Source: Nanobdellota archaeon (lineage in GTDB: Archaea; Nanobdellota; Nanobdellia; Woesearchaeales; JAHWHD01). Taken from it: 17,207 nt of DNA. Shown here one piece after another: positions 2,340-16,944 of the stretch. The stretch is taken from the NCBI GenBank assembly GCA_034722435.1, contig JAYENX010000012.1, forward strand, positions 1 to 17,207, written 5' to 3'. Made by a program: the position numbers and the translations under genes. The notes below the pieces were generated by a model. That model ran no database searches. It was not told the origin of the DNA and saw only the letters and a list, made by a program, of their open reading frames with translations. Position 1 is the first letter of the stretch. Every line of letters starts with the position of its first letter.

Positions 2340-3314
2340 TTATTGAGACATTTTTTTAAGATAATCTTTAAGAAGATCTTTTGTTTTTTGTTTGGTTTCA
2401 TTATCTATATCTATTTTATCTATTTCTTTATTCCAGTTTATGTTAGGAAGTTTTGTTAATGTTCCTAAGAATTCTCTTCCTTCTTGTTTTATGTATTTTT
2501 CAATTTGTTTTGCTCCGTCTGAATTGAACTTTTTAGTTGCAGGAAATTTTGTTATTGCGTTAGCTCCTGCTTTTATGAGCCACGGAACATCGTCAACTCT
2601 TCTTGCAGTGATTCCTGCAATAATTTCGAGTTTAGGGAATTTAATTCTTGTTTTAGCAACCCATTCTGCATAGTATTTTGTTTCAGGTCCTTCAGTGTAA
2701 GGTGTTCCTGTGATGGGTTTTAAGGCGTAGAAAGTGATTCTTTCTACTTCGTATTTTTCAATGAATTTAAAGAGTAAGTCTATGTGTTCAGGTTTTTCTC
2801 CTAGACCTATAACTATAGTTATTGATTTTTTTAAATTTCCTGAATAATTGAACATGTCAATATATTGTTGAATTGGTTTGTTTGGACAGATATCTTCGTG
2901 TAGTTTTGGTTCGATAGTTTCAATAGATGAGACAATGCCTTCAATATATGGTTTGAACTTTTCAAGGTCTTCTTGTTCTAAAGCGCCAAGGTTGAGCCAA
3001 ATTTTTTCTCCATAAATATCTGAAACTAGTTTAGTTATCTTGATAAGGTCTTTCATAGGGAATATTTTGTATCCTCCTGTTAAGAATTCAATACGCCATC
3101 CGAGATGTTTTGCAAGTAATGCTTCTACGATTATTGAGGGTATGGAACGTCTTGCGTTTTTTGCGTGTTTGATTCTGTCTTTAATGGTTGAACGGTAGCA
3201 GAACTTACAAGTGCCGACATCGCAGTACCAGCTTAAGAAAATGCATCTTCCAAACCATGCAATAGGTTTGAAGTTTTCAGCGTATACTTTTGATGCTTGT
3301 TTAAACATATCCAT
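2340..3314 (-). CDS. Radical SAM protein, biotin-synthase-like archaeal family; substrate unknown
   Basis: N-terminal Cys triad WYCDVGTCKFCY (CX4CX2C), an FLTGG motif, and TIM-barrel-like segments (IETIEPKLHEDICPNK, ITIVIGLGE, FYALKPITGTP, GANAIT). A TATA-like TTTAAAAA on the minus strand (3344-3337) lies about 23 nt before the ATG. Confidence 0.9.
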   Translation of the reverse strand: MDMFKQASKVYAENFKPIAWFGRCIFLSWYCDVGTCKFCYRSTIKDRIKHAKNARRSIPSIIVEALLAKHLGWRIEFLTGGYKIFPMKDLIKITKLVSDIYGEKIWLNLGALEQEDLEKFKPYIEGIVSSIETIEPKLHEDICPNKPIQQYIDMFNYSGNLKKSITIVIGLGEKPEHIDLLFKFIEKYEVERITFYALKPITGTPYTEGPETKYYAEWVAKTRIKFPKLEIIAGITARRVDDVPWLIKAGANAITKFPATKKFNSDGAKQIEKYIKQEGREFLGTLTKLPNINWNKEIDKIDIDNETKQKTKDLLKDYLKKMSQ

Positions 3315-5130: not shown

Positions 5131-6894
5131 ATGGTAAGGATAGCTATTGTTGATAAGGAAAAGTGTCGGAACGGTATTTACTGTGATTTTGTATGTGGCG
5201 GAGTATGTCCTGTGAATCGAACTGGTAAAGAATGTATAGTTCTTGATCCTGATGATAATAAACCTATAATTAATGAAGAACTTTGTATTGGTTGTGGTAT
5301 CTGTCCAAGGAAATGTCCTTTTGGTGCGCTTAAGATTATTAATTTGCCAGAGGCTTTAGATAAAGAGCCTATACATAGATATGGTCGGAACGGGTTTCAT
5401 CTTTATTCGTTGCCAATACCTATATTTGGAAAAGTTGTTGGTGTAGTTGGGAAGAATGGTATTGGTAAATCGACAGCTATAAAGATTCTATCAGGTATTT
5501 TGAAACCTAATCTTGGAAAAGATGGCGATGTAGGGTATGAAAAGGTTATTGAATATTTTAAAGGGACTGAAGCGCAATCATACTTTGAGAAAGTTAAAGA
5601 AGGAAAGATAAAAGTGGCTTATAAGCCTCAAGCTGTAGAACTTATACCTAAACAGTTTGATGGGAAGGTAAAGGATTTACTTAAAAATATTGATGAGAAG
5701 GATGCTTTTGATGAAGTTGTTAGGGAGCTTGAACTTGAAAAGTTTTTGGATACTGATATTAAATCTATCAGTGGTGGTGAGTTACAAAGAGTGGCAATAG
5801 CTGCGACTGTTTTGAAAAAAGCTGATGTTTATTTTTTTGATGAGCCGACTTCGTACCTTGATATAAAGCAAAGGTTGAAAGTTTCTAATTTTATAAGAAG
5901 ACTTGCTACACCTTTTGTTGCCGTTGTTGTGATTGAACACGATTTAATAATACTTGATTATATGACTGATTTAGTGCATCTTATGTACGGTAAAGAGGCT
6001 GCTTATGGTATAGTTTCGTTGACAAAGTCTACGAGAGTTGGTATAAATATTTATCTTTCAGGTTTCTTACGTGAAGAAAATATACGGTTTAGAAGTAAAG
6101 AGATTAAGTTTTTTGCAAGGCCTCCTGAAGAAGCTAAACATAATACTTTGTTGACTTCATGGAAAGGGATAAAAAAGCAGCTAGGTAATTTTAGTTTGGA
6201 AGCTCTTGAAGGTTCAGTTCATAAAAAGGATGTTATTAGTATTGTTGGAGAGAATGGTATAGGTAAAACTTCTTTTGTTAAGATTTTAGCAGATGTGATT
6301 GAACCTGACTCTGGAGAGGTCGGCGAGGGTGTAGTGGTTTCATATAAGCCTCAGTATATTGATATTGGAGATTCTGATGAATTGGTTATGAATGTGTTAA
6401 AAGATGCAGTTGAGAATTATAAAGCTCAATTGATACAGCCGTTAGAGATTGATCATTTATTGTTGAGGGAGGTTAATGAGTTGTCGGGTGGAGAATTACA
6501 AAGAGTTGCTATCGCATTATGTCTTTCGCGTAAAGCAGATTTATATTTATTAGATGAACCATCTGCTTATTTAGATGTAGAGCAGAGGTTAATTGTTTCG
6601 AAGATTGTACGTGATGTAATGGAATTTAGAGGTACAACTGCTTTAGTTGTTGATCATGATCTTTTGTTTGTTGATTATTTGTCGCATAAGATACTTGTCT
6701 TCGATGGTGAACCTGCTGTTAAAGGTAAAGCTCTTGGTCCGTTTGATATGAAACAAGGTATGTCTAAGTTTTTGAAAGATTTAGGTATTACTTTTAGAAG
6801 AGATGATGAGACTTTAAGACCTAGAGCTAATAAACCTGGTTCTGTAAAAGATAGAGAACAAAGAAGTAGTGGAAACTACTACTATGTTAATTAG
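5131..6894 (+). CDS. rli: Ribosome recycling/biogenesis ATPase ABCE1 (RNase L inhibitor homolog, RLI)
   Basis: N-terminal Fe-S Cys motifs (CxxxCxxxCP...CIGCGICPRKCP) and two ABC domains: Walker A GKNGIGKS and GENGIGKT, signature SGGELQRVAIA twice, Walker B FFDEP and LLDEP, and the C-terminal TFRRD...RPRANK motif. Confidence 0.98.
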   Translation: MVRIAIVDKEKCRNGIYCDFVCGGVCPVNRTGKECIVLDPDDNKPIINEELCIGCGICPRKCPFGALKIINLPEALDKEPIHRYGRNGFHLYSLPIPIFGKVVGVVGKNGIGKSTAIKILSGILKPNLGKDGDVGYEKVIEYFKGTEAQSYFEKVKEGKIKVAYKPQAVELIPKQFDGKVKDLLKNIDEKDAFDEVVRELELEKFLDTDIKSISGGELQRVAIAATVLKKADVYFFDEPTSYLDIKQRLKVSNFIRRLATPFVAVVVIEHDLIILDYMTDLVHLMYGKEAAYGIVSLTKSTRVGINIYLSGFLREENIRFRSKEIKFFARPPEEAKHNTLLTSWKGIKKQLGNFSLEALEGSVHKKDVISIVGENGIGKTSFVKILADVIEPDSGEVGEGVVVSYKPQYIDIGDSDELVMNVLKDAVENYKAQLIQPLEIDHLLLREVNELSGGELQRVAIALCLSRKADLYLLDEPSAYLDVEQRLIVSKIVRDVMEFRGTTALVVDHDLLFVDYLSHKILVFDGEPAVKGKALGPFDMKQGMSKFLKDLGITFRRDDETLRPRANKPGSVKDREQRSSGNYYYVN

Positions 6895-7801
6895 GTTTTG
6901 GAGTTACAAAAACTTTCATTCGGTCAATTTGTTTTCCATATTTTGCCAAAAATGTCATATCTCCTTTTGAAATTGCTTCGTTGTATGGAACCCACAAGTT
7001 TCTGTATTTTACAAATGAGTCGTGCATAAATTCTGCTATGTTAAGAAGTTCTGTTTTATCTCCTCTAGCTTCTTGTTGAGCCATATATGCTTCTCTGCTA
7101 ATGGTTCTTTCAAGGTCCATCCAAGGTATGTCTGTACTTTTACCATTAGGTTTTACACCTATAGTGTTGATGTATATAGGGATACCAAATTTTGAAAGGC
7201 ATGCTCTTACAATGAATGGTGATATAACGTCTAAATCTTTTTTGTATACTGGATTAGCGAAGTGTTGTTCGCCTTCGTATGCAAAAGAATTTCTTACATT
7301 TCTTTTACTTTTAAGCGCGTCTATAAGTGATCCTTCTTTATTATTTCCTACTGCGAAATTTCCTACGATTCCTGTTTCGCCATTGTACTGTTCAAGAGCT
7401 GTTCCTATTATTGCTAATCTTCTTGACATTACTGTAGCGGGATATTTTATATTCGGAGAGGCAGTTTTGACATTACCTACTTTTTCGTATATTTTTCCTG
7501 CAAGAATGAAATATATGGATGCTTTTTTAATGGCTCTCATGTTGGATGAACCGTTAGGTTTGAATTGAGCCAAGGTTTGAGCTCTTTCTTCGAGACATTG
7601 TGCTAGATGAAAGTTATCTCTTGCTGATCTTTTTTTTCTAATTAATTCAGATATTACTCCTTCCATTTCCGGATCTTCTATGGCGTCGTCAACTCTATCT
7701 AGTAAAAGTTCTAAATGTAAAGTTCGCGATTCTCTTTCTGCATCTGCATTTCTTATTAAATTTTGGTGATATTCTTCTTTGTTCATTTTTATTGTCCTCA
7801 T
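6887..7801 (-). CDS. Hypothetical protein (304 aa)
   Basis: Long ORF filling the space between ABCE1 and the kinase operon, with an 8-nt convergent overlap with ABCE1. No recognisable motif. Confidence 0.8.
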   Translation of the reverse strand: MRTIKMNKEEYHQNLIRNADAERESRTLHLELLLDRVDDAIEDPEMEGVISELIRKKRSARDNFHLAQCLEERAQTLAQFKPNGSSNMRAIKKASIYFILAGKIYEKVGNVKTASPNIKYPATVMSRRLAIIGTALEQYNGETGIVGNFAVGNNKEGSLIDALKSKRNVRNSFAYEGEQHFANPVYKKDLDVISPFIVRACLSKFGIPIYINTIGVKPNGKSTDIPWMDLERTISREAYMAQQEARGDKTELLNIAEFMHDSFVKYRNLWVPYNEAISKGDMTFLAKYGKQIDRMKVFVTPKPN

Positions 7802-7997
7802 AAACCTTAATGTATATATTTTATATGCTGAAAGTCTTCCGGATTTTTAAAGCTTTTGCAAGTTTCGTATATAAATCTTTAAATATAAACCTCGGTGAAT
7901 TTCTGTTTTATTGGGGTGGGCTGGTTATTTGGTGGTTAAGTTAGTTAGATTCTGGTTTAGGTTATGTTACTTCTGTTAAGGGGTCAAAATAGTTATC

Positions 7998-8005
7998 TTT
8001 ATAAA
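7998..8005 (+). promoter_or_regulatory. TATA box of the RHH-kinase operon
   Basis: TTTATAAA preceded by A-rich caaaatag; it ends about 22 nt before ATG 8027. Confidence 0.7.
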
Positions 8006-8026
8006 TGATTAATAGTTTTTATTAAG

Positions 8027-8170
8027 ATGAAGCATGTGGTTAGCTTTAGTTTGGATGAAGATACAATCTTGAAGATTCGTGAGAAGTTACGTTCTAATAA
8101 AAGTTTACGAAGTAAGAGTCATCTTGTAGAAGAAGCTGTTAAAAAGTTTTTGAAGGGTGATGGTGAATGA
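8027..8170 (+). CDS. Ribbon-helix-helix (CopG/MetJ/Arc-type) DNA-binding protein, 47 aa, absent from the ORF track
   Basis: Manual translation MKHVVSFSLDEDTILKIREKLRSNKSLRSKSHLVEEAVKKFLKGDGE*: alternating beta strand VVSFSL, helix A, then SKSHLVEEAVKKFL helix B. The stop overlaps the next start as ATGA at 8167-8170. Confidence 0.85.
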   Translation: MKHVVSFSLDEDTILKIREKLRSNKSLRSKSHLVEEAVKKFLKGDGE

Positions 8171-9573
8171 GTGATGAACCTTCTAAATCGGACTTAGAGT
8201 ATTATATTAATAAATTGAAGTCTGGTGATATTGAATCTAATCTTACTGAATATGTTTCTCTTTTTGATGATGATTATTGGAATTTAGTTCAGCAGAATGA
8301 GTCTGATGATATTTCAAATTTAGATTGCTGTGAAGAGTATTTTGATCTTAATGAATATTTGTATGAGTTAGAAGAAGATAATTTTTCGGATGGTTTTGAT
8401 GAGTTTGATATTCTTGATGATAGGGTTAAGATGTATCAAAAATTTGGGATTGGTTGCCAAGAAGCTGACATTATTGAGGGTTCGGAAGTTGATCTTTATT
8501 CTCTTGATGATAAACAGTTACAAATAGTTTCGGCATTAGCACATTTTTTTGTTAAACTTTGGCACAGTAGGATTGATGATGTTTATGACGATTATGAAAA
8601 AATTATGGACGATCTTGAAGTTGGTGGTGAAATTGAATGGGATGAAAATGATCTTGATGATTATGTTTATGCAGGAACTAAAGATGTATTTGATTTAATC
8701 GGTTATTTAAATATAAACAAACCATTTTTTGATGTTCTTGGAACTGGTGTTTCAGGTTTAGTTATTTATACTAATAATTCAAACCTGGCCACTCCTTTGT
8801 TGAGTAGACGAGTTCATGAAGAGTATTCTTTTCAGGATATTCGTAATATTTATGATCTTTGTAATTCTGCTTTTAAATATATGGGTGGCGATTCAGAGGG
8901 TTTTAACAAGGAATATGGACTGCTCGAACATCTTCACGCTGTTAATCCAAATACAAAAAATGTTGTTCAGCTTAATCCTTATTCTGGTTCTGTAGAATCT
9001 TATCCTTTTTTTGTTAGGCTAGATTTAGTTGAAGGGGATTCTCTTGAAAAATTAATTTCTGATGAAGGTTATTTTAATTCGGATAAAATACTTAAAATTG
9101 TAGCTGGAATAATGAATGGTTTAATGGAGTTAAGGGAGGCTGGGATATATTTCCACAGAGATTTAAGGCCTGCTAATGTTGTTGTTGTTGATAATGATAA
9201 TCCTGTTATTGTTGATCTTGGTATTGCTTCAGATGATTCTGATGCTCTCGCTAAGGATAATCGACGTTATGGTTCTGAGACTGGTGAAACTGCTAATGAT
9301 TTGGTTTCGTTGGGTCAGATTATGTATAAGATGTATACTGGTGATTTTCTTTTTGCTGAGAGTGATTCGATGGAACGAACTATTTATGCTGATAAATTAA
9401 GAGATTATCGTGATGTTGTGTTGAATGATTTTGAACTACTTGATGAATATCTTAAGAAAGTGGATGGTAAAGTTAAAGATGAACGAGTTAGAGAATTAAT
9501 TAAAACTTGCATTCTTTCACAACCTGAAGATTATTCTATGGTTAGTGCTATGTTTGAGAGGTATAGGGGATGA
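8167..9573 (+). CDS. Protein kinase K1 (eukaryotic-like/Hanks-type fold) with a very acidic N-terminal region
   Basis: Gly-loop LGTGVSG, beta3 Lys AFKY after an insertion, alphaC NKEY, catalytic loop HRDLRPAN (9154-9177), DLG, and subdomain IX NDLVSLG. Confidence 0.92.
   Translation: MSDEPSKSDLEYYINKLKSGDIESNLTEYVSLFDDDYWNLVQQNESDDISNLDCCEEYFDLNEYLYELEEDNFSDGFDEFDILDDRVKMYQKFGIGCQEADIIEGSEVDLYSLDDKQLQIVSALAHFFVKLWHSRIDDVYDDYEKIMDDLEVGGEIEWDENDLDDYVYAGTKDVFDLIGYLNINKPFFDVLGTGVSGLVIYTNNSNLATPLLSRRVHEEYSFQDIRNIYDLCNSAFKYMGGDSEGFNKEYGLLEHLHAVNPNTKNVVQLNPYSGSVESYPFFVRLDLVEGDSLEKLISDEGYFNSDKILKIVAGIMNGLMELREAGIYFHRDLRPANVVVVDNDNPVIVDLGIASDDSDALAKDNRRYGSETGETANDLVSLGQIMYKMYTGDFLFAESDSMERTIYADKLRDYRDVVLNDFELLDEYLKKVDGKVKDERVRELIKTCILSQPEDYSMVSAMFERYRG
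9556..9573 (+). repeat. 18-nt direct repeat at the K1/K2 junction, copy 1
   Basis: gagaggtataggggatga is identical to 10893-10910. Confidence 0.95.
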
Positions 9574-10910
9574 CTGGGCTAATTGATGGAATTAAAGATT
9601 TCATTAGATGGTGTTTTTATGGGAAAGAAATAGACCCTGAAGCATTGGAGGAATTTAAACATTTAATTAACTCTGATATAAGGCATCCTGAAAATTGGGA
9701 AAGAGAGTATGGTCCTGAGTATGATGCCAGATTTTCTTTAGAAGATATTTTTGAATTTTGTTCAGGTGGAATTCTTCCTGATGAGGCAAACTCTTATAAT
9801 TCTCGATTTGGTGCAGAGGATATTAATTTTTTAGTAGGTGCGAAGTGTTCTCCTGAAATAGCTGAACAATACTCTGATGATATAAGTGGAAAAGTTGTTG
9901 CGATTATGCACAAATTTGGGATTCTTTCTAGTTCATTTGAAGATGTTAGACTAAAAAACTTTGCGGAAATATTGGAGTCAGTACATAAAGTAGATATTGG
10001 GGAGTTTTTGTCATATGATTCGGAATTGCTTGGGACGGGATATTCAGGAACTGTTGTTTTATTTAGGGGTACTGCATTAAAATTTTCAAAAGACGCAAAA
10101 AAAGAGGCAGTAATAATATCTCAGATTTATGACGCTAATGCAGATAATTTGGTAAATACAATCAAAATGTATAGGGGGTCTTATCCTGGTTATTTTAAAA
10201 TTGAATCTATTATTGGAGATAGTTTGGAAATAATAATTTCTAATATGGCTCCTCTTGATTCTGAAATTAATCTTAGAATTTCAACAGGAATATTAAACGG
10301 ACTTATAGAAATGCGAAAAGCTGGAGTCTTTTATCATTGTGACCTTCGGCCTGCCAATATTCTATTAGCTGAAAAATTTGATTTTTTGAAACTATTACAT
10401 GAAATACTATGTTCAGGTATGAACGTAGACCCTGATGAAGTTAAGTACATAGAGCCCGAATATATGCGTTTTAAATACAGTGACCCTAAAATAATAGATT
10501 TCGAAATAGCTACAACAGATAGACATTACATGCAGAATGTTTACAAAGGATGTAAGGGGGAAGATTCGGTTCCTGATAAAAATCGTCGTTTTGGTGGTCC
10601 TAATGATTTAGTTTCATTGGGTCAGATGATGTATCTGATGGCTACTGGTGAACATATATTTTTGAATAAAAAAACTGGAGATGAGTCTGAGTCTATGTCA
10701 AGAACTTTTGGTTCAGTTGCTGATAGGATTAATGATTATAGGACTAAAGTTTATTTAGATGAGAGTGGTGAACTTTTGAAAGGTCATCTTAAACAAGTTG
10801 ATGATACTGTTGAAGATGAGGGTGTAGCTTTCTTGATAAAAGAGTGTTTAACTGCCAGGAATTATGATTATGGGAGAGTTAAGAGGGTGTTCGAGAGGTA
10901 TAGGGGATGA
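9570..10910 (+). CDS. Protein kinase K2 with N-terminal 25-aa repeats
   Basis: LGTGYSG, ALKF, KKE, HCDLRPAN (10335-10358), DFE in place of DFG, and NDLVSLG. ATGA overlap with K1. Confidence 0.9.
   Translation: MTGLIDGIKDFIRWCFYGKEIDPEALEEFKHLINSDIRHPENWEREYGPEYDARFSLEDIFEFCSGGILPDEANSYNSRFGAEDINFLVGAKCSPEIAEQYSDDISGKVVAIMHKFGILSSSFEDVRLKNFAEILESVHKVDIGEFLSYDSELLGTGYSGTVVLFRGTALKFSKDAKKEAVIISQIYDANADNLVNTIKMYRGSYPGYFKIESIIGDSLEIIISNMAPLDSEINLRISTGILNGLIEMRKAGVFYHCDLRPANILLAEKFDFLKLLHEILCSGMNVDPDEVKYIEPEYMRFKYSDPKIIDFEIATTDRHYMQNVYKGCKGEDSVPDKNRRFGGPNDLVSLGQMMYLMATGEHIFLNKKTGDESESMSRTFGSVADRINDYRTKVYLDESGELLKGHLKQVDDTVEDEGVAFLIKECLTARNYDYGRVKRVFERYRG
10893..10910 (+). repeat. 18-nt direct repeat at the K2/K3 junction, copy 2
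   Basis: gagaggtataggggatga is identical to 9556-9573. Confidence 0.95.
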
Positions 10911-12487
10911 GTTCAGAACAAAATATTTTGGAATTAGAAATGTTAGTAAAATTAGATTCAATTCTAATAAATATACAAGATTATTATAGAAATGCAAATA
11001 AGATAAAAGATAAACAAATACCTTCAAAAATTGAAATATTAGAAAATATTCAGACTTATAGATCTGAAGTGAAATTAAATGGGACAAAGCAAGAAAATGA
11101 TCATGTTCCGAGGTTATATGGCTGTGTTGGAGATTTAGTTCCAAATGATATGAACGAAACAAAACAAGAAAGAGACGTGAGAGAAGAAGTTTCAAGATTA
11201 TATGGGCGGGCTAGACGATTAGTACCTAATACTATACATGAGACAAAACTAGAAAAAGAAGTGAGAGATATAGTTTCGAGATTATATGGGCGGGTTAGAG
11301 AATTAGTGCCAAATGATCAAATTATAGAAGCAATAAAAATTAAAGATAAAGTTATAAATAGATATCAAGGCAAATTATCTGCAAGAGACAAAATTGTTTT
11401 AATGGTAAACAAAGTAGAACCAACTTTCGCAAACGAGATAAGGGATTTTTACAGAGCTCAGTTTGAAGATTTAAATTTGTATAAAACTTATGAGCCTGTT
11501 TCCGCAGTAGATTTAATATATTTAAAAAACTTAGGAGTTCAAACTAAAGACTTACAAGAAGTTAATAAGCAAAAAGATCTATTTGATTTAAGTATTTTAA
11601 CTCAGTTGACTTTAATCAGGTCTGGGATAAATTTAGAAAAATTATTAAAAAAATTTTCAATTTTAAAAGTTAAACAATTAGTCAATGAGATTAGGATTAG
11701 TTCACGAAGTGATCAGAGAATCAAAGCGTTGTTTGTAGGGAACAAATCTGTTGTGATACGAAAAACTATACGAACACCGACTAACCGAGATGAATGCGCT
11801 TGTGGGTATATTTCCGAATCTATAGTGAAATACTGTGATGATCCTGAACCTGAAAAACAGATTTTAAAAACTATTGAGGGAGTTTGTTTTAATAATGTCA
11901 TAGAAATTCCAATTCAAAGATGGGATCAATCAACAATTATATTAAGATATATTCCGGGAGATTCATTAGAAGAAATTCTATCTCGGAATCCTCTTAGCTT
12001 TGAAAAAACAATTCAATATACAAAAGGAATACTCGCTGGGTTAATTGAACTTCAGAAAAATGGGATTTATTATCATAGAGATATAAGACCCGCAAACATA
12101 ATTATAGATAGCCTGATAGATGCGCCAGTAATAATTGATTTAGGAATTGCTATAATGGAAGAAGATGCGTGTGCAAAAGATAATCGGAGATATGGTCCTT
12201 CAGGACCTCAAGCTAATGACTTAATTTCTTTAGGTCAAGTGATGTATAAAATGGCAACAGGTAAGCACATTTTTGCTAAATCTCAATCAATGGAAAAAAC
12301 AGTTTATGCACAAGATCTCGCAGATCATAGGGATTGGATTTATGCTGACAGAATAAGATTAAATTATTATTTTAAAAAAGTTGATAAAAACTTGCCTATT
12401 AATCTTGCGACCCTTATAAAAGTTTGTTTAACTGCAAATAACGATGATCATGAAAAAATACAACGTTTGTTGGAGGCTTACGAATGA
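10907..12487 (+). CDS. Protein kinase K3 with N-terminal 28-aa repeats and a degenerate Gly-loop
   Basis: LFVGNKSVVI (one Gly retained), IVKY, PEPE, HRDIRPAN (12074-12097), DLG, and NDLISLG. ATGA overlap with K2. Confidence 0.9.
   Translation: MSSEQNILELEMLVKLDSILINIQDYYRNANKIKDKQIPSKIEILENIQTYRSEVKLNGTKQENDHVPRLYGCVGDLVPNDMNETKQERDVREEVSRLYGRARRLVPNTIHETKLEKEVRDIVSRLYGRVRELVPNDQIIEAIKIKDKVINRYQGKLSARDKIVLMVNKVEPTFANEIRDFYRAQFEDLNLYKTYEPVSAVDLIYLKNLGVQTKDLQEVNKQKDLFDLSILTQLTLIRSGINLEKLLKKFSILKVKQLVNEIRISSRSDQRIKALFVGNKSVVIRKTIRTPTNRDECACGYISESIVKYCDDPEPEKQILKTIEGVCFNNVIEIPIQRWDQSTIILRYIPGDSLEEILSRNPLSFEKTIQYTKGILAGLIELQKNGIYYHRDIRPANIIIDSLIDAPVIIDLGIAIMEEDACAKDNRRYGPSGPQANDLISLGQVMYKMATGKHIFAKSQSMEKTVYAQDLADHRDWIYADRIRLNYYFKKVDKNLPINLATLIKVCLTANNDDHEKIQRLLEAYE
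11105..11320 (+). repeat. Intragenic 84-nt (28-aa) tandem repeat in K3, about 2.5 copies
   Basis: Units start at 11105, 11189 and 11273: V(P/S)RLYG....LVPN...ETK.E..VR.. Confidence 0.9.
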
Positions 12488-13800
12488 ATTTTGACGACGA
12501 TCCGTATGATGGATGGTTCGATGCTCTCTATGAAGCTGAATTTGAAGATTTTCCTGAAGAGTTTTGTAAAGATTATGGGATTTCAAAGAGTGTTTTATTA
12601 GAATTATTATCTAAAGGGGATGTTAATTTTTGGGATATAATTCAGATTTCAGAATCTGGAGGGGATTGGGGAATAGTAAGTGATTGGATTCCAAATGATT
12701 CTGATTTGGATATAGTTGAGGTTTATCGGGCTATTAAAGGTTCACCTGAATGGTATAAAGGATATGATGTAACGAAATTTAAGAAACATGAAATGGCAAA
12801 ACTAATTTCTAATAATGTTGGATTAGATGCAAATGATTATAATTCTAGGTTTTCAATTGATGATATAATTAATTTATCAAATTTTGAAGTAAATTCCGAT
12901 CTTGCAGATGAATATCCTGTAGATGCAACAACTCCTGCTATTTGTTTGATGAAACATTTTGCTCAGTTGCCAAATTCAAAAGAAGCAGAAAGATTACATG
13001 AATTATTTAATAAAATTTTTAATTTGTATGGTCTTGGAGGAGATTATCAGTTACTGGGAACTGGTGCAACTGCTGTAGTTTTATTAAGAGATAGAAAAGC
13101 AGTAAAATTTTCATATGGGATAAATAGAGAATATACTTATTTAGATGGAGTACGATTTGCTTGTTCTGGGACGCAAAATAATATTGTTAAATTAAAAGGT
13201 AAGGTTCAACAAAATATTGCATTAGAGATTGAACATATTAAAGGAAAACCATTAGGGGAAATTTTTATAGAAAGAAGGGTAGTTCCAAGGGATACGATAA
13301 GACAATATGCGTCTGGGATTTTAAATGGAATTCTTGAATTGCGAAAGGCAGGAATTTATCACCATGATATTCATGATAGGAATATAATGATTGAACAAGG
13401 GGGACGGGCTGTAATAATTGATTTAGGTGCAGCATCTAAAAATCCAGAACAATATAATCCTTTCAATAGGGCTTATGGCGGTAACAATGATATTATTTCA
13501 TTGGGTCAGTTATTATATCGTATGGCGAGTGGTGAAAATCTTTTTAAAGAAGATGCAAGAAATTTTACTTGTTATTCTGAATGCAAAGATGGAATAAAAA
13601 CTGAGAGGGAACGAGTGTATGAAAATCCTGTTTTATTTAGACAATATATGAATTTGATAAAGAAAACAGTTAGTCCGAAAATTGATAAAGATAATAGGGT
13701 TACAGAATTAATATTAACTTTACTGGATGCTGATTTGTGGAAACAACCTGATTATGAAAGGGTGGTTCAGGTAAAAAAAGAGGTTGAGGAGTGTTTGTAA
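12484..13800 (+). CDS. Protein kinase K4 with N-terminal 25-aa repeats
   Basis: LGTGATA, AVKF, NRE, HHDIHDRN (13360-13383), DLG, and NDIISLG. ATGA overlap with K3, with SD-like GGAGG upstream. Confidence 0.9.
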   Translation: MNFDDDPYDGWFDALYEAEFEDFPEEFCKDYGISKSVLLELLSKGDVNFWDIIQISESGGDWGIVSDWIPNDSDLDIVEVYRAIKGSPEWYKGYDVTKFKKHEMAKLISNNVGLDANDYNSRFSIDDIINLSNFEVNSDLADEYPVDATTPAICLMKHFAQLPNSKEAERLHELFNKIFNLYGLGGDYQLLGTGATAVVLLRDRKAVKFSYGINREYTYLDGVRFACSGTQNNIVKLKGKVQQNIALEIEHIKGKPLGEIFIERRVVPRDTIRQYASGILNGILELRKAGIYHHDIHDRNIMIEQGGRAVIIDLGAASKNPEQYNPFNRAYGGNNDIISLGQLLYRMASGENLFKEDARNFTCYSECKDGIKTERERVYENPVLFRQYMNLIKKTVSPKIDKDNRVTELILTLLDADLWKQPDYERVVQVKKEVEECL

Positions 13801-13822: not shown

Positions 13823-13861
13823 TTCGGAAATATTCCGAAAAAATATGAAAATATTTAAAAA
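13823..13861 (+). promoter_or_regulatory. Inverted repeat (possible operator) plus TATA-like box upstream of the phosphatase genes
   Basis: TTCGGAA-ATA-TTCCGAA at 13823-13839. TTTAAAAA at 13854-13861, about 27 nt before ATG 13888. Confidence 0.45.
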
Positions 13862-13887
13862 TGAATTTTGGATACATAATAAAGAAA

Positions 13888-14664
13888 ATGCATTTAATAT
13901 TTGATGTTGATGGAACTCTGTATAATAAATCTAGAGATTACAAAGGTAACGGGACAATCTTAGATTCTCATGAATTTATGAGATATGCTACTTATGTTGC
14001 TGCTTTGAATAGGTGTGTTGCTGATGAAGTTGTGGCTGGTTTAGTGTTGGGGGAATATAATCGACATGTTGAGCAAGGTTCGCTTTTGGAAGCAATTGCT
14101 GGATTTTCTTCAGAGACAAAAGAAGAATACTCTGTTTTAGTAGAAAAGCATGGTTCAAATGGTAATGTTTTTGTGAATGAATTTGGTTCTAATTCAGGAT
14201 ACCTTTCTGAGATGCTTTCCCATATAGATTTTAAAGAAGTTTTAGATGAAGATTATGAACTTCAGAAAACTATTTCTTATTTAAAACAGCATCATACATT
14301 GGGAATTTTTACAAGTGAAGTTTATTCTACTGTGGAATCCGTTTTTGAAGTTCTTGGTTTAGATTTAACTGATTTTAGTATGATTTTGACAGCTGAAGAT
14401 GTAGTACATAAGAAACCTGGCAGGGAGGGTTTCGATAGGGTACTTCAATTAACTGGACAACCTTCTGTAAATGTGAATTATATAGGTGATCATTTAACTA
14501 AAGATGTTAAAGCACCTTTGGCATTAGGTATGCGCGCTATTCATGTAACTTGGAAATCGGGGGATATTAAAGGTAAGCGTGTAGTGCCTAATCTTCATGG
14601 ATGTTATGATTCTAAATCTTATATTGAAATTCCTACTATTTATAATTTAACGGAGATATTTTGA
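13888..14664 (+). CDS. HAD-superfamily hydrolase (phosphatase); the track start is 13861, but 13888 is more likely
   Basis: Motif I LIFDVDGTL, motif II FTS, motif III KKP, motif IV YIGDHLTKD. HAD proteins usually start just before motif I, and the TATA spacing fits 13888. Confidence 0.92.
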   Translation: MHLIFDVDGTLYNKSRDYKGNGTILDSHEFMRYATYVAALNRCVADEVVAGLVLGEYNRHVEQGSLLEAIAGFSSETKEEYSVLVEKHGSNGNVFVNEFGSNSGYLSEMLSHIDFKEVLDEDYELQKTISYLKQHHTLGIFTSEVYSTVESVFEVLGLDLTDFSMILTAEDVVHKKPGREGFDRVLQLTGQPSVNVNYIGDHLTKDVKAPLALGMRAIHVTWKSGDIKGKRVVPNLHGCYDSKSYIEIPTIYNLTEIF

Positions 14665-16034
14665 TGATACAAAAAATAATTCAAATTGCTAGACAAGCAG
14701 GACAAATAATTGAAGAAGCTAAAAATGAGAAACAAATAACTAAAAGTAAAGAAGATGGTACTGTTGTTACAACAACTGATTTAAAAGTTGATAAGTTTAT
14801 AATTGAACAATTAAATAAATTTTTTCCTGATATTGAAGTTTTGACAGAAGAAACTGTTTCTGTGATTACAAAAGATACATTCTTTATTATTGATCCCTTG
14901 GATGGTACTCAGGAATTTTTAAACTCTATAAAAGACCCTTCATTAATTGAATATGCTGTTATGATTGGTTTGGTGAAACAACATATTCCTGTTTTAGGGG
15001 TGGTTTATCTTCCTGCAACAAAAACATTATACTATGCAGAGCAAGGTAAGGGTGCTTTTAAGGAGTGTGGTGATAAAACTGAACAAATTTATACAAAAAA
15101 TTCAAATAAAATTCTTATTGGTAAATATAATGTTGATGAAGACCTCGAATTATATTTGAAAAATAAATATAATTTAACTTCTGAACAAACATTTAAAGGG
15201 GGTTCATTTGGAGTGAAAGTGTGTCAATTAGCAGAAGGACTTTTTCAAGAATTTATACATACAAATTATGATAAAAATAAAATTCATGCTTCTATATGGG
15301 ATTCGTGCGCTTCAGATATTATTTTAAAAGAAGCGGGAGGCTTTTCTCATACAATTAAAACCTTAGAGTCTGTTAATTATAAACAAATAGAATTAACAAA
15401 TGGTTATATTGCTTCTTCAAATAAATTTAATACTTTGTTTATTTTTGATATTGATGGTGTTCTTGGAAATTTTGAAAAATTAAGAAAACTGAGAGATGTT
15501 GCACATTGTAAGGCTATTGCAAACAAACATAACATTACAGAAAAACAAGCAATTAAACTATTAAATGAAACTAGAATTAAATTAAAACAAGAAGGTAAAC
15601 ATTCGACAATAGATGCTATGCGAGCGTTAGGAGTTTCTGAAAAAGAATTTTATGATATTATGAATTCTGTACCTGTTGAAGGTAATATTGTTTTAACTTC
15701 TCACGTTGTTGAATTATTGCAAAAATTAAAATCTGGTAATGCAATAGTTGCTTTAACGAACACCCCTACTAAAGCGATTCTTGCGACTCTTGAATATCTT
15801 GGTCTTTTACATTTTTTTGATGCTGTTTATTGTATTGATAAATATAATTTTGTAAAACCTTCTATTGAAATTTATAAAACCATTATGGGAGATTTTAAAG
15901 CTAAAGAAGTTATTTCAATAGGTGATTCAGAAGAAAAAGATCTTAAACCTGCAAAACAATTAAATTTAAAAACATTTTATTTTAGTACTAAAGATGATTC
16001 TTCAGATATTAGAGCTCTCTTAGACTTTTTCTAA
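14664..16034 (+). CDS. Fusion of an inositol-monophosphatase-family domain (CysQ/PAP-phosphatase-like) and a C-terminal HAD hydrolase
   Basis: N-terminal half: KEDGTVVTTTD, LTEE, IIDPLDGTQEF, GVVYLP, WDSCASDIILKEAGG. C-terminal half: FIFDIDGVL, LTNT, KPS, IGDSEEKD. TGATG overlap with the HAD stop and SD-like GGAGA upstream; the track start 14661 is a TTG. Confidence 0.92.
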   Translation: MIQKIIQIARQAGQIIEEAKNEKQITKSKEDGTVVTTTDLKVDKFIIEQLNKFFPDIEVLTEETVSVITKDTFFIIDPLDGTQEFLNSIKDPSLIEYAVMIGLVKQHIPVLGVVYLPATKTLYYAEQGKGAFKECGDKTEQIYTKNSNKILIGKYNVDEDLELYLKNKYNLTSEQTFKGGSFGVKVCQLAEGLFQEFIHTNYDKNKIHASIWDSCASDIILKEAGGFSHTIKTLESVNYKQIELTNGYIASSNKFNTLFIFDIDGVLGNFEKLRKLRDVAHCKAIANKHNITEKQAIKLLNETRIKLKQEGKHSTIDAMRALGVSEKEFYDIMNSVPVEGNIVLTSHVVELLQKLKSGNAIVALTNTPTKAILATLEYLGLLHFFDAVYCIDKYNFVKPSIEIYKTIMGDFKAKEVISIGDSEEKDLKPAKQLNLKTFYFSTKDDSSDIRALLDFF

Positions 16035-16944
16035 GATAAACGTGCTCTGAGAAATCATTTATTGTATTTAATAGAAGATCTGCTTCCATAATAACGCGTA
16101 ATTCTTTAATGGTAAAATTAGTTTTTTTAACTTTATCAACAATTGAGTATCTTTTTTGAATAAAATCACTGCCTACTTCTTTTTGTTTAATTAATAGCAT
16201 CTGTTCACAAAAGTAATTAAATATTTCTTTTAATAATTTTTTAGCTTTAGGTGTGCATCCGTATGTGAAGATTGCTTCATCAATATGTCTCAATTTATCT
16301 ACAACTTTATCGATGACTTGATATAATGCATAACTTAATTTTTTTTCTTCTTTTTCTTTATCTGAAGCATATAAAGTTCTTAAATAATAATTAATAAATT
16401 TGCTGATGTTGTCGTGGATGTTGTACATTGTATCGTGAAATTCTTTGTAATCTTTACCTATGGAATTGATCATTTCGTTCATTGCTTGTTTCATTAAGAA
16501 ATATATTCTTTGTTCAATCTTTTGAAGATTTAATATTTCGGATGTTACAAAACACTCAATTTCAGTTTTCTTAGTTGATTGAGATACAATTTCTGCTCCT
16601 ATATATCTTTCAATTAATTTTATGATTGATTTATTTAATGACATTTCTTTCTGTTTTTTTGGATGAAGTATTAAATTGTTAGAATAAGTTAATATAATTC
16701 TGTCGAAATCCATTCTATATAATATTGTTAGATGTCTATTAAGTGCAAAATAATTGTAATTATCTATGTTAAAACTAATTTCTTTACATTTTTTTTTAAT
16801 TTCAGATTTGGATAAAGTTATGTTGTTTCCTTCGGTATTTATATTTAGTTCGTTGCCTTTTTCTATTTTATTTTCTTCAACCCATTTACTGGGCAAACTT
16901 ACTGTGAGTGTATTTTGACCTACTCTGTTTACTTTTCTTTTCAT
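16009..16944 (-). CDS. AbrB/MazE-domain plus PhoU-like transcriptional regulator (archaeal phosphate-uptake regulator family)
   Basis: N-terminal RKVNRVGQNTLTVSLPSKWVEENKIEKGNEL is an AbrB swapped-hairpin signature. The helical C-terminal part (HDNISKFINYYLR...DKVVDKLRH) is PhoU-like. A TATA-like TATTTATA lies about 23 nt upstream. Confidence 0.82.
   Translation of the reverse strand: MKRKVNRVGQNTLTVSLPSKWVEENKIEKGNELNINTEGNNITLSKSEIKKKCKEISFNIDNYNYFALNRHLTILYRMDFDRIILTYSNNLILHPKKQKEMSLNKSIIKLIERYIGAEIVSQSTKKTEIECFVTSEILNLQKIEQRIYFLMKQAMNEMINSIGKDYKEFHDTMYNIHDNISKFINYYLRTLYASDKEKEEKKLSYALYQVIDKVVDKLRHIDEAIFTYGCTPKAKKLLKEIFNYFCEQMLLIKQKEVGSDFIQKRYSIVDKVKKTNFTIKELRVIMEADLLLNTINDFSEHVYLRKSLREL

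Follow-up and report, generated by a model that had tools for sequence, protein, structure and literature searches.

Why would an archaeon with a reduced genome keep four protein kinases in a row, directly behind a gene for a very small DNA-binding protein? This layout is found on a contig (JAYENX010000012.1, C12 in our numbering) of assembly GCA_034722435.1, from a Nanobdellota archaeon of the order Woesearchaeales; we analyzed the entire contig, a stretch of 17,207 nucleotides (nt) that we call the window. An initial annotation had described positions 8027-13800 as a translationally coupled operon for a ribbon-helix-helix (RHH) regulator and four divergent, paralogous protein kinases in a reduced archaeal genome. 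The genome is indeed that of a DPANN archaeon (Woesearchaeota-type), with a size of 1.30 Mb at 94.5% completeness; it holds 13 matches to the Pkinase family and devotes about 8 kb to one kinase module. We see about an even chance that this module is a cytoplasmic phospho-signalling system tied to dedicated transcription factors.

A predicted operon for one regulator and four kinases

Five open reading frames (ORFs) of 47, 468, 446, 526 and 438 amino acids (aa) were confirmed on the forward strand within 8027-13800. The first (8027-8170) encodes an RHH protein of the CopG/Arc type, and the others encode the kinases that we call K1 (8167-9573), K2 (9570-10910), K3 (10907-12487) and K4 (12484-13800). 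Every junction among these ORFs is a 4-nt ATGA overlap, including the one at which the RHH stop codon overlaps the start of K1. A TATA-like box (TTTATAAA; 7998-8005, forward strand) lies about 22 nt upstream of the RHH ATG; the ORF table and the sequence thus agree with the five genes, four overlaps and one TATA box reported initially.

No second TTTATAWA motif was found on the forward strand within 8027-13800. Over the whole window, TATA-type motifs are not more frequent than expected by chance, and it is therefore the position of the box, rather than motif frequency, that argues for a putative promoter. The short spacing between box and start codon suggests that the operon transcript is leaderless or near-leaderless. 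The anatomy of the operon shows the RHH gene and the four kinase genes to be one predicted transcription unit. No Rfam family was detected within the window.

Four divergent kinases with a common catalytic core

All four large proteins scored above the gathering threshold of the Pfam Pkinase family (PF00069; 31.7 bits), with 55.2, 39.0, 49.6 and 56.4 bits for K1 to K4, respectively. The Hanks-type kinase domain is C-terminal in each of them (K1: aa 188-468, nt 8728-9573; K2: nt 10002-10910; K3: nt 11702-12487; K4: nt 13027-13791) and follows an N-terminal half of 147-268 aa that can hardly be aligned between the four proteins, just as the initial annotation had proposed. The family motifs that it had listed are all invariant columns of the four-way kinase alignment, where they read GDSL..I, GI..G..E....G, NR.(Y/F)G, ND(L/I)(V/I)SLGQ and M..G...F. 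Identities between the kinase domains are 45% for K1-K2, 39% for K1-K3, 33% for K2-K4 and 30% for K3-K4.

The residues required of a protein kinase are conserved well beyond the window. In alignments of 60 and 70 subfamily members, K1-K4 included, the beta3 Lys, the alphaC Glu, the HxD Asp, the following Asn, the DxG Asp, the alphaF Asp and the subdomain-XI Arg are invariant (K237, E249, H330, D332, N337, D350, D378 and R415 in K1 numbering, with the His of HxD counted). An AlphaFold2 model of K4 (pLDDT 88.6, pTM 0.82) contains the bilobal kinase fold, including the alphaF-alphaI part of the C-lobe. In a fold search that covered residues 166-438, its best structural match was PknB of Mycobacterium tuberculosis (1mru_A; Z 20.5, root-mean-square deviation 2.9 Å over 223 residues), with which residues 177-438 of the model align, and many eukaryotic kinases ranked next.

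Individual members of the array depart from the canonical motifs to different degrees. K2 has HCD for HRD and DFE for DFG, with the catalytic residues retained, and its catalytic loop is separated from DFE by an insert of about 33 aa, with a second insert behind DFE (10300-10560); it is the most derived of the four. The glycine loop of K3 is degenerate, with intact catalytic residues, and K4 has the motif variant H-D. The N-termini are acidic in K1 (aa 1-187, 28% Asp plus Glu), K2 and K4, and basic in K3; that of K2 contains two to three copies of a 25-aa repeat described below, and that of K4 consists of helical-hairpin repeats. No hydrophobic leader, signal peptide or transmembrane segment was visible in any of the four N-termini. 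Judged from these sequence features, K1-K4 are probably active, soluble, cytoplasmic protein kinases.

Kinase domains also occur outside the window in this genome (our G000): a giant minus-strand frame of about 2987 aa on another contig (C5, 10409-19357) contains three strong Pkinase matches (E 8e-50, 4e-46 and 2e-45).

The kinase arrays recur with a dedicated AbrB-PhoU regulator

With a profile built from the kinase domains of K1-K4, 216 subfamily representatives were retrieved at E ≤ 1e-30 out of 1.84 billion representative sequences. They measure 223-1377 aa and all have the kinase domain at the C-terminal end, and among 70 members no Pfam family beyond the kinase clan was detected. By sequence, the kinases form a distinct subfamily that is known, among the genomes searched, only from the window's own order, in line with the earlier proposal of a lineage-specific kinase cassette array. 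In genomes with multiple copies the kinases are clustered on one contig, with one exception.

Using custom hidden Markov models (HMMs), we surveyed the layout of 22 distinct loci from public assemblies, with the window as one of them and the others given here by locus number. Two to seven tandem subfamily kinases were found in 15 of the 22 loci, often with stop/start overlap. An AbrB-PhoU gene of about 310 codons, homologous to the gene at 16009-16944 of the window, lies within 3 kb of the array in about 17 of the 22 loci, mostly in convergent orientation, and is the most constant partner of the kinase arrays. An RHH gene overlaps the first kinase in seven loci (the window, L013, L021, L023, L027, L030 and L033), and one to three AsnC-family genes are found beyond the AbrB-PhoU gene in 10 loci. 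The recurrent module thus consists of an optional RHH gene, one to seven kinases and an optional HAD gene on one strand, facing a convergent gene for the AbrB-PhoU regulator, with one or more AsnC regulator genes beyond it that again point forward. Tandem arrays, overlapping upstream RHH genes and variable N-termini, which the initial annotation had suggested tracing with an HMM, all recur outside the window.

The AbrB-PhoU gene of the window (16009-16944, reverse strand) is convergent with the operon and encodes an AbrB(SpoVT)-PhoU-like putative transcription regulator of 311 aa. Residues 10-47 match the Pfam family MazE_antitoxin/SpoVT-AbrB (PF04014) with 29.4 bits against a threshold of 24.7. 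In the AlphaFold2 model (pLDDT 87), the C-terminal helical bundle retrieved PhoU structures (3l39, 1xwm, 1t8b and 2i0m) as its top Foldseek matches, with probability 1.0, TM-scores of 0.53-0.57 (by target) and weak E-values of 0.02-0.1. No Pfam match to PhoU was seen for this protein, and a profile search of the PDB with its alignment returned designed helical bundles only. The architecture is that of a populous family of archaeal transcription factors, the PhoU type being among the most populated in Pyrococcus furiosus (PMC6316755).

Of 151 genomes from the order, 137 contain the family, with 1-16 copies each, a number at which chance adjacency to kinases should be rare. The association is not symmetrical: among 20 control copies from other genomes, only two had any kinase nearby. 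To follow the history of the regulator we used a FastTree phylogeny of 42 family members, in which 13 of the 17 kinase-adjacent copies, together with one copy from a short contig, form a single clade of 14 on a long stem (SH-like support 1.0; stem length 0.82). The kinase-associated clade includes both control copies that have more divergent kinases beside them. This co-inheritance suggests that the kinases and this particular AbrB-PhoU clade belong together, and it is the strongest functional clue.

The window ends 263 nt past the AbrB-PhoU gene. Another contig of the same genome (C9) starts with an AsnC-family gene (195-626), the gene expected next by synteny; the ends of the two contigs (17088-17207 of C12 and 1-626 of C9) share a 7-nt overlap, GGATATG, which is too weak for a join. 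Six of the surveyed loci (L020, L022, L024, L026, L028 and L031) come from public metagenome-assembled genomes titled 'uncultured Methanosarcinales archaeon'. Those with L020, L022, L024 and L026 measure 1.1-1.8 Mb and gave no McrA match, and they also carry the Woesearchaeota-type kinase/AbrB-PhoU module, which suggests that the Methanosarcinales label is wrong.

The partnership with the AbrB-PhoU regulator also bears on an idea put forward in the initial annotation, namely that the kinases are host-directed effectors. Delivered from a presumably episymbiotic cell, they would rewire host signalling, with variable N-termini that target different host proteins. The reduced 1.3 Mb genome fits this idea, as the DPANN lineage to which it belongs is generally regarded as symbiotic (PMC8204110); the many eukaryote-like kinases, with 13 Pkinase matches in the genome, and the hypervariable repeat domains would fit as well. 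However, N-termini without signal peptide or transmembrane segment and a locus without secretion genes give no evidence for secretion, and exported proteins would not be expected to be so closely linked to transcription regulators of the cell itself. We know of no report on protein transfer in this lineage, and we consider the effector explanation very improbable.

Variable N-termini on an old set of kinase paralogues

The N-terminal regions of the subfamily are dominated by a short periodic element. Using a custom iterated HMM that was started from a periodic motif in the family consensus, we defined a 25-aa repeat (consensus NKYDKRFSGEDIIELVKAGISPEEA), which is present in 1-25 copies in 115 of 153 family proteins. 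Within this genome it is limited to K2 and K4, and each unit in the K4 model is formed by a 9-residue helix and a short helix. Repeat-rich family members matched no known repeat family of Pfam even at E ≤ 10, and a feature search of the ESM Atlas with the repeat region yielded no usable match.

These N-termini diverge much faster than the kinase domains behind them. Among the closest pairs, identity is 43-70% in the kinase domain and 18-32% in the N-terminus, where lengths differ by 50-250 aa. A near-orthologue of K1 on a syntenic contig (gene order ABCE1, a 321-aa minus-strand gene, a 47-aa RHH and the kinase) is 72% identical to K1 in the C-lobe only. In K3, an 84-nt (28-aa) tandem repeat in the N-terminal part (11159-11314; 1.9 copies, 83% match, peptide ...SRLYGR.R.LVPN...) looks like a recent internal duplication.

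When 43 kinase domains were placed in a maximum-likelihood tree, K1, K2 and K4 came to lie in separate supported clades, K1 with L013, K2 with L024 and L022, and K4 with L033, L023 and L014. The placement of K3 is unsupported, and it groups with none of the other three. Recent in-array duplications of kinases were seen in several other genomes. Since K1, K2 and K4 each belong to a different supported clade, the array of the window is old and shaped by birth-and-death evolution rather than by recent copying, which fits four distinct functions better than recent redundancy. An alternation of two kinase subtypes along the operon (A-B-A'-B') was considered and rejected, as the tree pairs neither K1 with K3 nor K2 with K4.

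The RHH protein as a putative regulator of the unit

The 47-aa RHH protein matches RHH_1 (PF01402) with 17.9 bits (E 0.003), below the cut-off of 20.5; many of its homologues with 50-76% identity carry a precomputed PF01402 match. The family comprises 328 clusters from Woesearchaeota/Nanoarchaeota records, many of them with precomputed PF01402 matches and CopG/Arc/MetJ names, and a profile search of the PDB with the RHH alignment returned only noise. In the six other loci with an RHH gene, the protein is 47-74% identical to that of the window and has the same position before the first kinase. All of these proteins are 45-49 aa long, a bare fold with no extra tail. The link between RHH and kinases drawn in the initial annotation therefore stands in part: the same overlapping RHH gene recurs in seven loci, but it is missing from about two-thirds of the arrays, as judged by a stop-to-stop six-frame search down to 25 aa. 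The kinase that follows the RHH gene also differs in clade from locus to locus.

The contexts of three further family members were sampled outside the surveyed loci. On a 71-kb contig (L102, 1-14144; JGI 3300033991), an RHH gene stands in the middle of a co-directional row and overlaps both of its neighbours; the row encodes an 862-aa kinase, a 515-aa kinase with eight 25-aa repeats, a 701-aa TPR protein, a 983-aa protein, the RHH protein, a 989-aa kinase and an 1164-aa HEAT-kinase, and a second RHH of the same family is found on the same contig. Another family member overlaps the gene of a 589-aa protein with a faint APH match, which is followed by a convergent AbrB-like gene. In L100 (7001-10029), the RHH gene abuts the gene of a 963-aa Methyltransf_33 protein that has no kinase match, with a convergent double AsnC-type regulator next to it; RHH is thus not exclusive to kinases. 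By gene order, members of the RHH family are repeatedly coupled in translation to large genes of the signalling type in this lineage.

A small DNA-binding gene immediately upstream of a kinase gene, and coupled to it, recalls the HipBA toxin-antitoxin system, and the initial annotation had raised such a function: growth-arresting kinase toxins, one or several, would be held in check by the RHH protein as their antitoxin, much as HipA is by HipB. The overlap between RHH and kinase start in seven loci, the additional RHH contexts and the patchy distribution of the module are in keeping with it. The similarity does not extend to the proteins themselves. HipA has its own fold and its own Pfam families, distinct from PF00069, and HipB is an HTH-XRE protein; among the Pfam matches of the window's kinases at E ≤ 0.1 only Pkinase-clan families and no HipA family appeared, in agreement with a Hanks-type fold. 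RHH antitoxins typically measure 70-90 aa, whereas the proteins described here are a bare DNA-binding fold of 45-49 aa without a toxin-binding extension. The RHH gene is also dispensable in most arrays, is followed by kinases of different clades at different loci, and in one case precedes the non-kinase 963-aa protein. The window would moreover have four toxins to one antitoxin, an arrangement for which no precedent is known to us. Taken together, these points make a toxin-antitoxin function highly improbable. As it is absent from most arrays and precedes non-orthologous kinases, we read the RHH protein as a putative transcriptional regulator of the unit, not as an antitoxin.

Two HAD-type phosphatase genes behind the kinases

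The gene that follows K4 after 60 nt (13861-14664, forward strand) encodes a HAD-IA hydrolase of 267 aa (Pfam HAD_2, E 1.7e-14). No T-run terminator was found between the two genes, and the HAD gene is probably co-transcribed with the kinases. It is overlapped by 4 nt by the next gene (14661-16034, forward strand), which encodes a 457-aa fusion of a CysQ-like domain of the inositol-monophosphatase (IMPase) family to a HAD-IA domain (Pfam Inositol_P, E 6.6e-42, plus HAD_2; 157 bits against NCBIfam CysQ, under the cut-off of 228.8). CysQ-like proteins belong to the 3'(2'),5'-bisphosphate nucleotidase / inositol monophosphatase family. Both HAD-type phosphatase genes (13861-16034) are likely to belong to the kinase transcription unit.

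In L021 and L033, the gene directly behind the last kinase encodes a homologue of the 267-aa protein, with 45-46% identity. A HAD gene thus stands behind the kinases in three loci, window included, all of which bear an RHH gene. The HAD half of the fusion protein recurs near kinases in L021, L030, L022 and L025.

These genes raise the possibility that the kinases phosphorylate metabolites or nucleotides, and that together with the HAD-IA and CysQ-like phosphatases they run a metabolic or second-messenger cycle. The recurrence of HAD-IA directly after the last kinase and the fusion of a CysQ-like domain to HAD in the window are consistent with such a cycle, as are the lack of an APE motif, and of part of the activation segment and P+1 region, in the kinases, and a genome in which PP2C_2-type phosphatases and FHA domains were not found. 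However, the C-lobe of the kinases is complete for a protein kinase, with both the alphaF Asp and the subdomain-XI Arg, and the APH and choline-kinase types of small-molecule kinase are devoid of that C-lobe subdomain. The K4 model superposes best on the protein kinases PknB, GRK2 and CLK2 (Z 19-20, 223-256 residues), and most arrays have no HAD genes. We therefore regard a small-molecule function as very improbable.

Neighbouring genes

The genes that flank the module are housekeeping ones, encoding ABCE1, ribosomal protein L21e and PheRS. A 304-aa protein is encoded on the minus strand (6887-7801), divergent from the promoter region of the RHH gene. It has no Pfam, NCBIfam or PADLOC match, and the other kinase loci yielded no homologue; on the syntenic contig with the K1 near-orthologue, the 321-aa gene takes its position. 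Further upstream, the window encodes a 778-aa protein with a PGF-pre-PGF domain, probably a surface protein (1-2337), and a radical-SAM protein (2340-3314) that scores 298 bits against the PRK06267 equivalog (cut-off 305).

Discussion

The bacterial kinases PknB, PrkC and YabT share their catalytic fold and residues with K1-K4, and YabT of Bacillus subtilis matches the K4 model with a Z of 18.3. In B. subtilis, kinases of this type are reported to phosphorylate transcription regulators, including AbrB. Unlike the bacterial Hanks kinases, K1-K4 have neither a membrane anchor nor a PASTA-type sensor (22-40 bits against NCBIfam PknB_PASTA_kin, cut-off 450); here the kinase domain is C-terminal, behind 25-aa repeats, the APE motif is replaced, and the genes form coupled arrays of paralogues. 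ArnC, ArnD and other eukaryotic-type protein kinases of Sulfolobus are likewise cytoplasmic archaeal Ser/Thr kinases. The Sulfolobus kinases are scattered and work with FHA/vWA partners and with PP2A and PTP phosphatases, whereas those described here form an operonic array with RHH, AbrB-PhoU and AsnC regulators. The Sulfolobus kinases feed transcription-linked networks and cross-phosphorylate each other (PMC5007285; PMC5682000). Tandem arrays are not mentioned in a review of archaeal kinases (PMC5007285).

Among defence systems, the single-kinase models PD-T4-6 and MADS mad6, together with BREX PglW and MkoA, share Hanks-type cores with K1-K4 and were the top hits of a PADLOC run. This similarity forms part of the case for a conflict system, in which the array would consist of kinases that sense viruses, mobile elements or host/partner cells. 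The hypervariable repeat N-termini would recognise foreign proteins, and mass phosphorylation would lead to a protective or abortive response, like that of staphylococcal Stk2 or PD-T4-6. Such a function would be in keeping with a patchy occurrence in about 4% of the order's genomes across many families, with the failure to find the module, the 304-aa protein and the IMPase-HAD protein in same-genus and same-family genomes (unpublished and incomplete), with birth-and-death evolution and recent in-array duplications, with fast-evolving repeat domains and the mosaic K1 near-orthologue, and with a genome in which PP2C_2 or FHA partners were not found. However, the PADLOC hits (30-65 bits) cover the catalytic core only, at the level of generic Pfam Pkinase matches, and correspond to no described defence system. 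In NCBIfam, K1-K4 scored 21-42 bits against MAD6 (cut-off 460) and 14-17.5 bits against PglW (cut-off 990). The window contains no MADS or BREX companion genes, its neighbours being ABCE1, the orphan 304-aa protein, the HAD and IMPase-HAD genes and AbrB-PhoU, and no recurring nuclease, methylase or other defence partner was seen in the loci surveyed. The constant neighbours are instead transcription factors, with a co-evolving AbrB-PhoU clade, and the flanks are housekeeping genes. A conflict system is, in our judgement, rather unlikely. With these low scores, and with those against PknB, the statement of the initial annotation that no described system has this layout holds.

Several observations weigh against phospho-signalling as well. 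The proposed link from kinases to regulator comes only from gene neighbourhood and co-phylogeny. In all four kinases NR(R/A)(Y/F)G stands in place of the APE motif, and the DxG Asp is separated from the alphaF Asp by 23-28 residues in K1, K3 and K4, and by 36 in K2, which reaches this value because of its insert; the distance in protein kinase A is 36 by textbook numbering. With APE replaced and a short activation segment in three of the four, recognition of peptide substrates may be unusual. Some active atypical kinases are also without APE (PMC5007285). A PP2C_2-type phosphatase (PF13672) and an FHA domain were not found in this 94.5% complete genome, so that the usual toolkit of reversible signalling is not evident there, and the HADs of the locus belong to the capped IA type, normally small-molecule enzymes.

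The distribution is patchy: samples of 300 and 400 other genomes contained 11 and 16 genomes, respectively, in which the subfamily was found (E ≤ 1e-25; one of the 11, G133, is unpublished). The positive genomes all belong to the window's own order, where they are spread over many families and make up about 4%. The subfamily was not found in a genome of the same genus (G001, 89% complete) or in one of the same family (G002, 76% complete), both unpublished, and neither were the flanking 304-aa and IMPase-HAD proteins. Hypervariable repeat domains combined with birth-and-death evolution are also typical of conflict systems.

With these points taken into account, phospho-signalling in the cytoplasm, linked to dedicated transcription factors, remains a coin-toss in our estimate, and the best explanation that we can offer. 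Anatomy, fold, catalytic residues, recurrence and co-phylogeny of the module are observed; its substrates and signal flow we infer as follows. The kinases would act within the cell, where their repeat arrays may serve as recognition or sensor surfaces for differing ligands or protein partners, and would phosphorylate cellular proteins. The prime candidate for a target or modulator is the neighbouring AbrB-PhoU regulator, and Lrp/AsnC regulators may be targets too; through such regulators, signals would be converted into transcriptional change. The RHH protein, first in the operon and translationally coupled, would set operon expression via the promoter region at 7802-8026. Since no PP2C_2-type phosphatase was detected, the HAD phosphatases are candidates for the opposing activity, as erasers of the phosphorylation. 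A role of this kind has parallels, as archaeal Hanks-type kinases act in transcription-linked networks such as the archaellum network of Sulfolobus (PMC5007285).

A bolder form of this proposal, which we put forward as a speculation and hold to be unlikely as it stands, is that of a self-contained and so far unrecognised archaeal signalling system, a 'Hanks-kinase one-step system'. Interchangeable repeat-array sensor kinases would write onto one dedicated AbrB-PhoU factor, with RHH as built-in regulator and the HAD phosphatases as eraser, and the arrays would lengthen and shorten by duplication and N-terminal swapping as they track changing partners such as host or viral proteins. If true, such a system would parallel two-component systems or the receptor-kinase arrays of innate immunity, in organisms with almost no other signalling genes.

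The kinds of components are all known: Hanks kinases with repeats, RHH, AbrB-PhoU, AsnC and HAD proteins. None of the libraries or papers that we searched contained the kinase subfamily, the 25-aa repeat, or the conserved module and the regulator clade dedicated to it, and a partial coverage of the literature yielded nothing relevant on tandem kinase arrays in DPANN archaea or Woesearchaeota. The locus thus adds a kinase subfamily and a protein repeat, both new by sequence, that are still to be described. DPANN archaea have stripped-down genomes, and how they sense, respond and handle hosts and viruses is almost unknown. In these organisms the module, whose parts recur in unrelated families of the order, offers a tractable candidate for a signalling pathway, with a kinase, a candidate substrate, a candidate eraser and a candidate operator.

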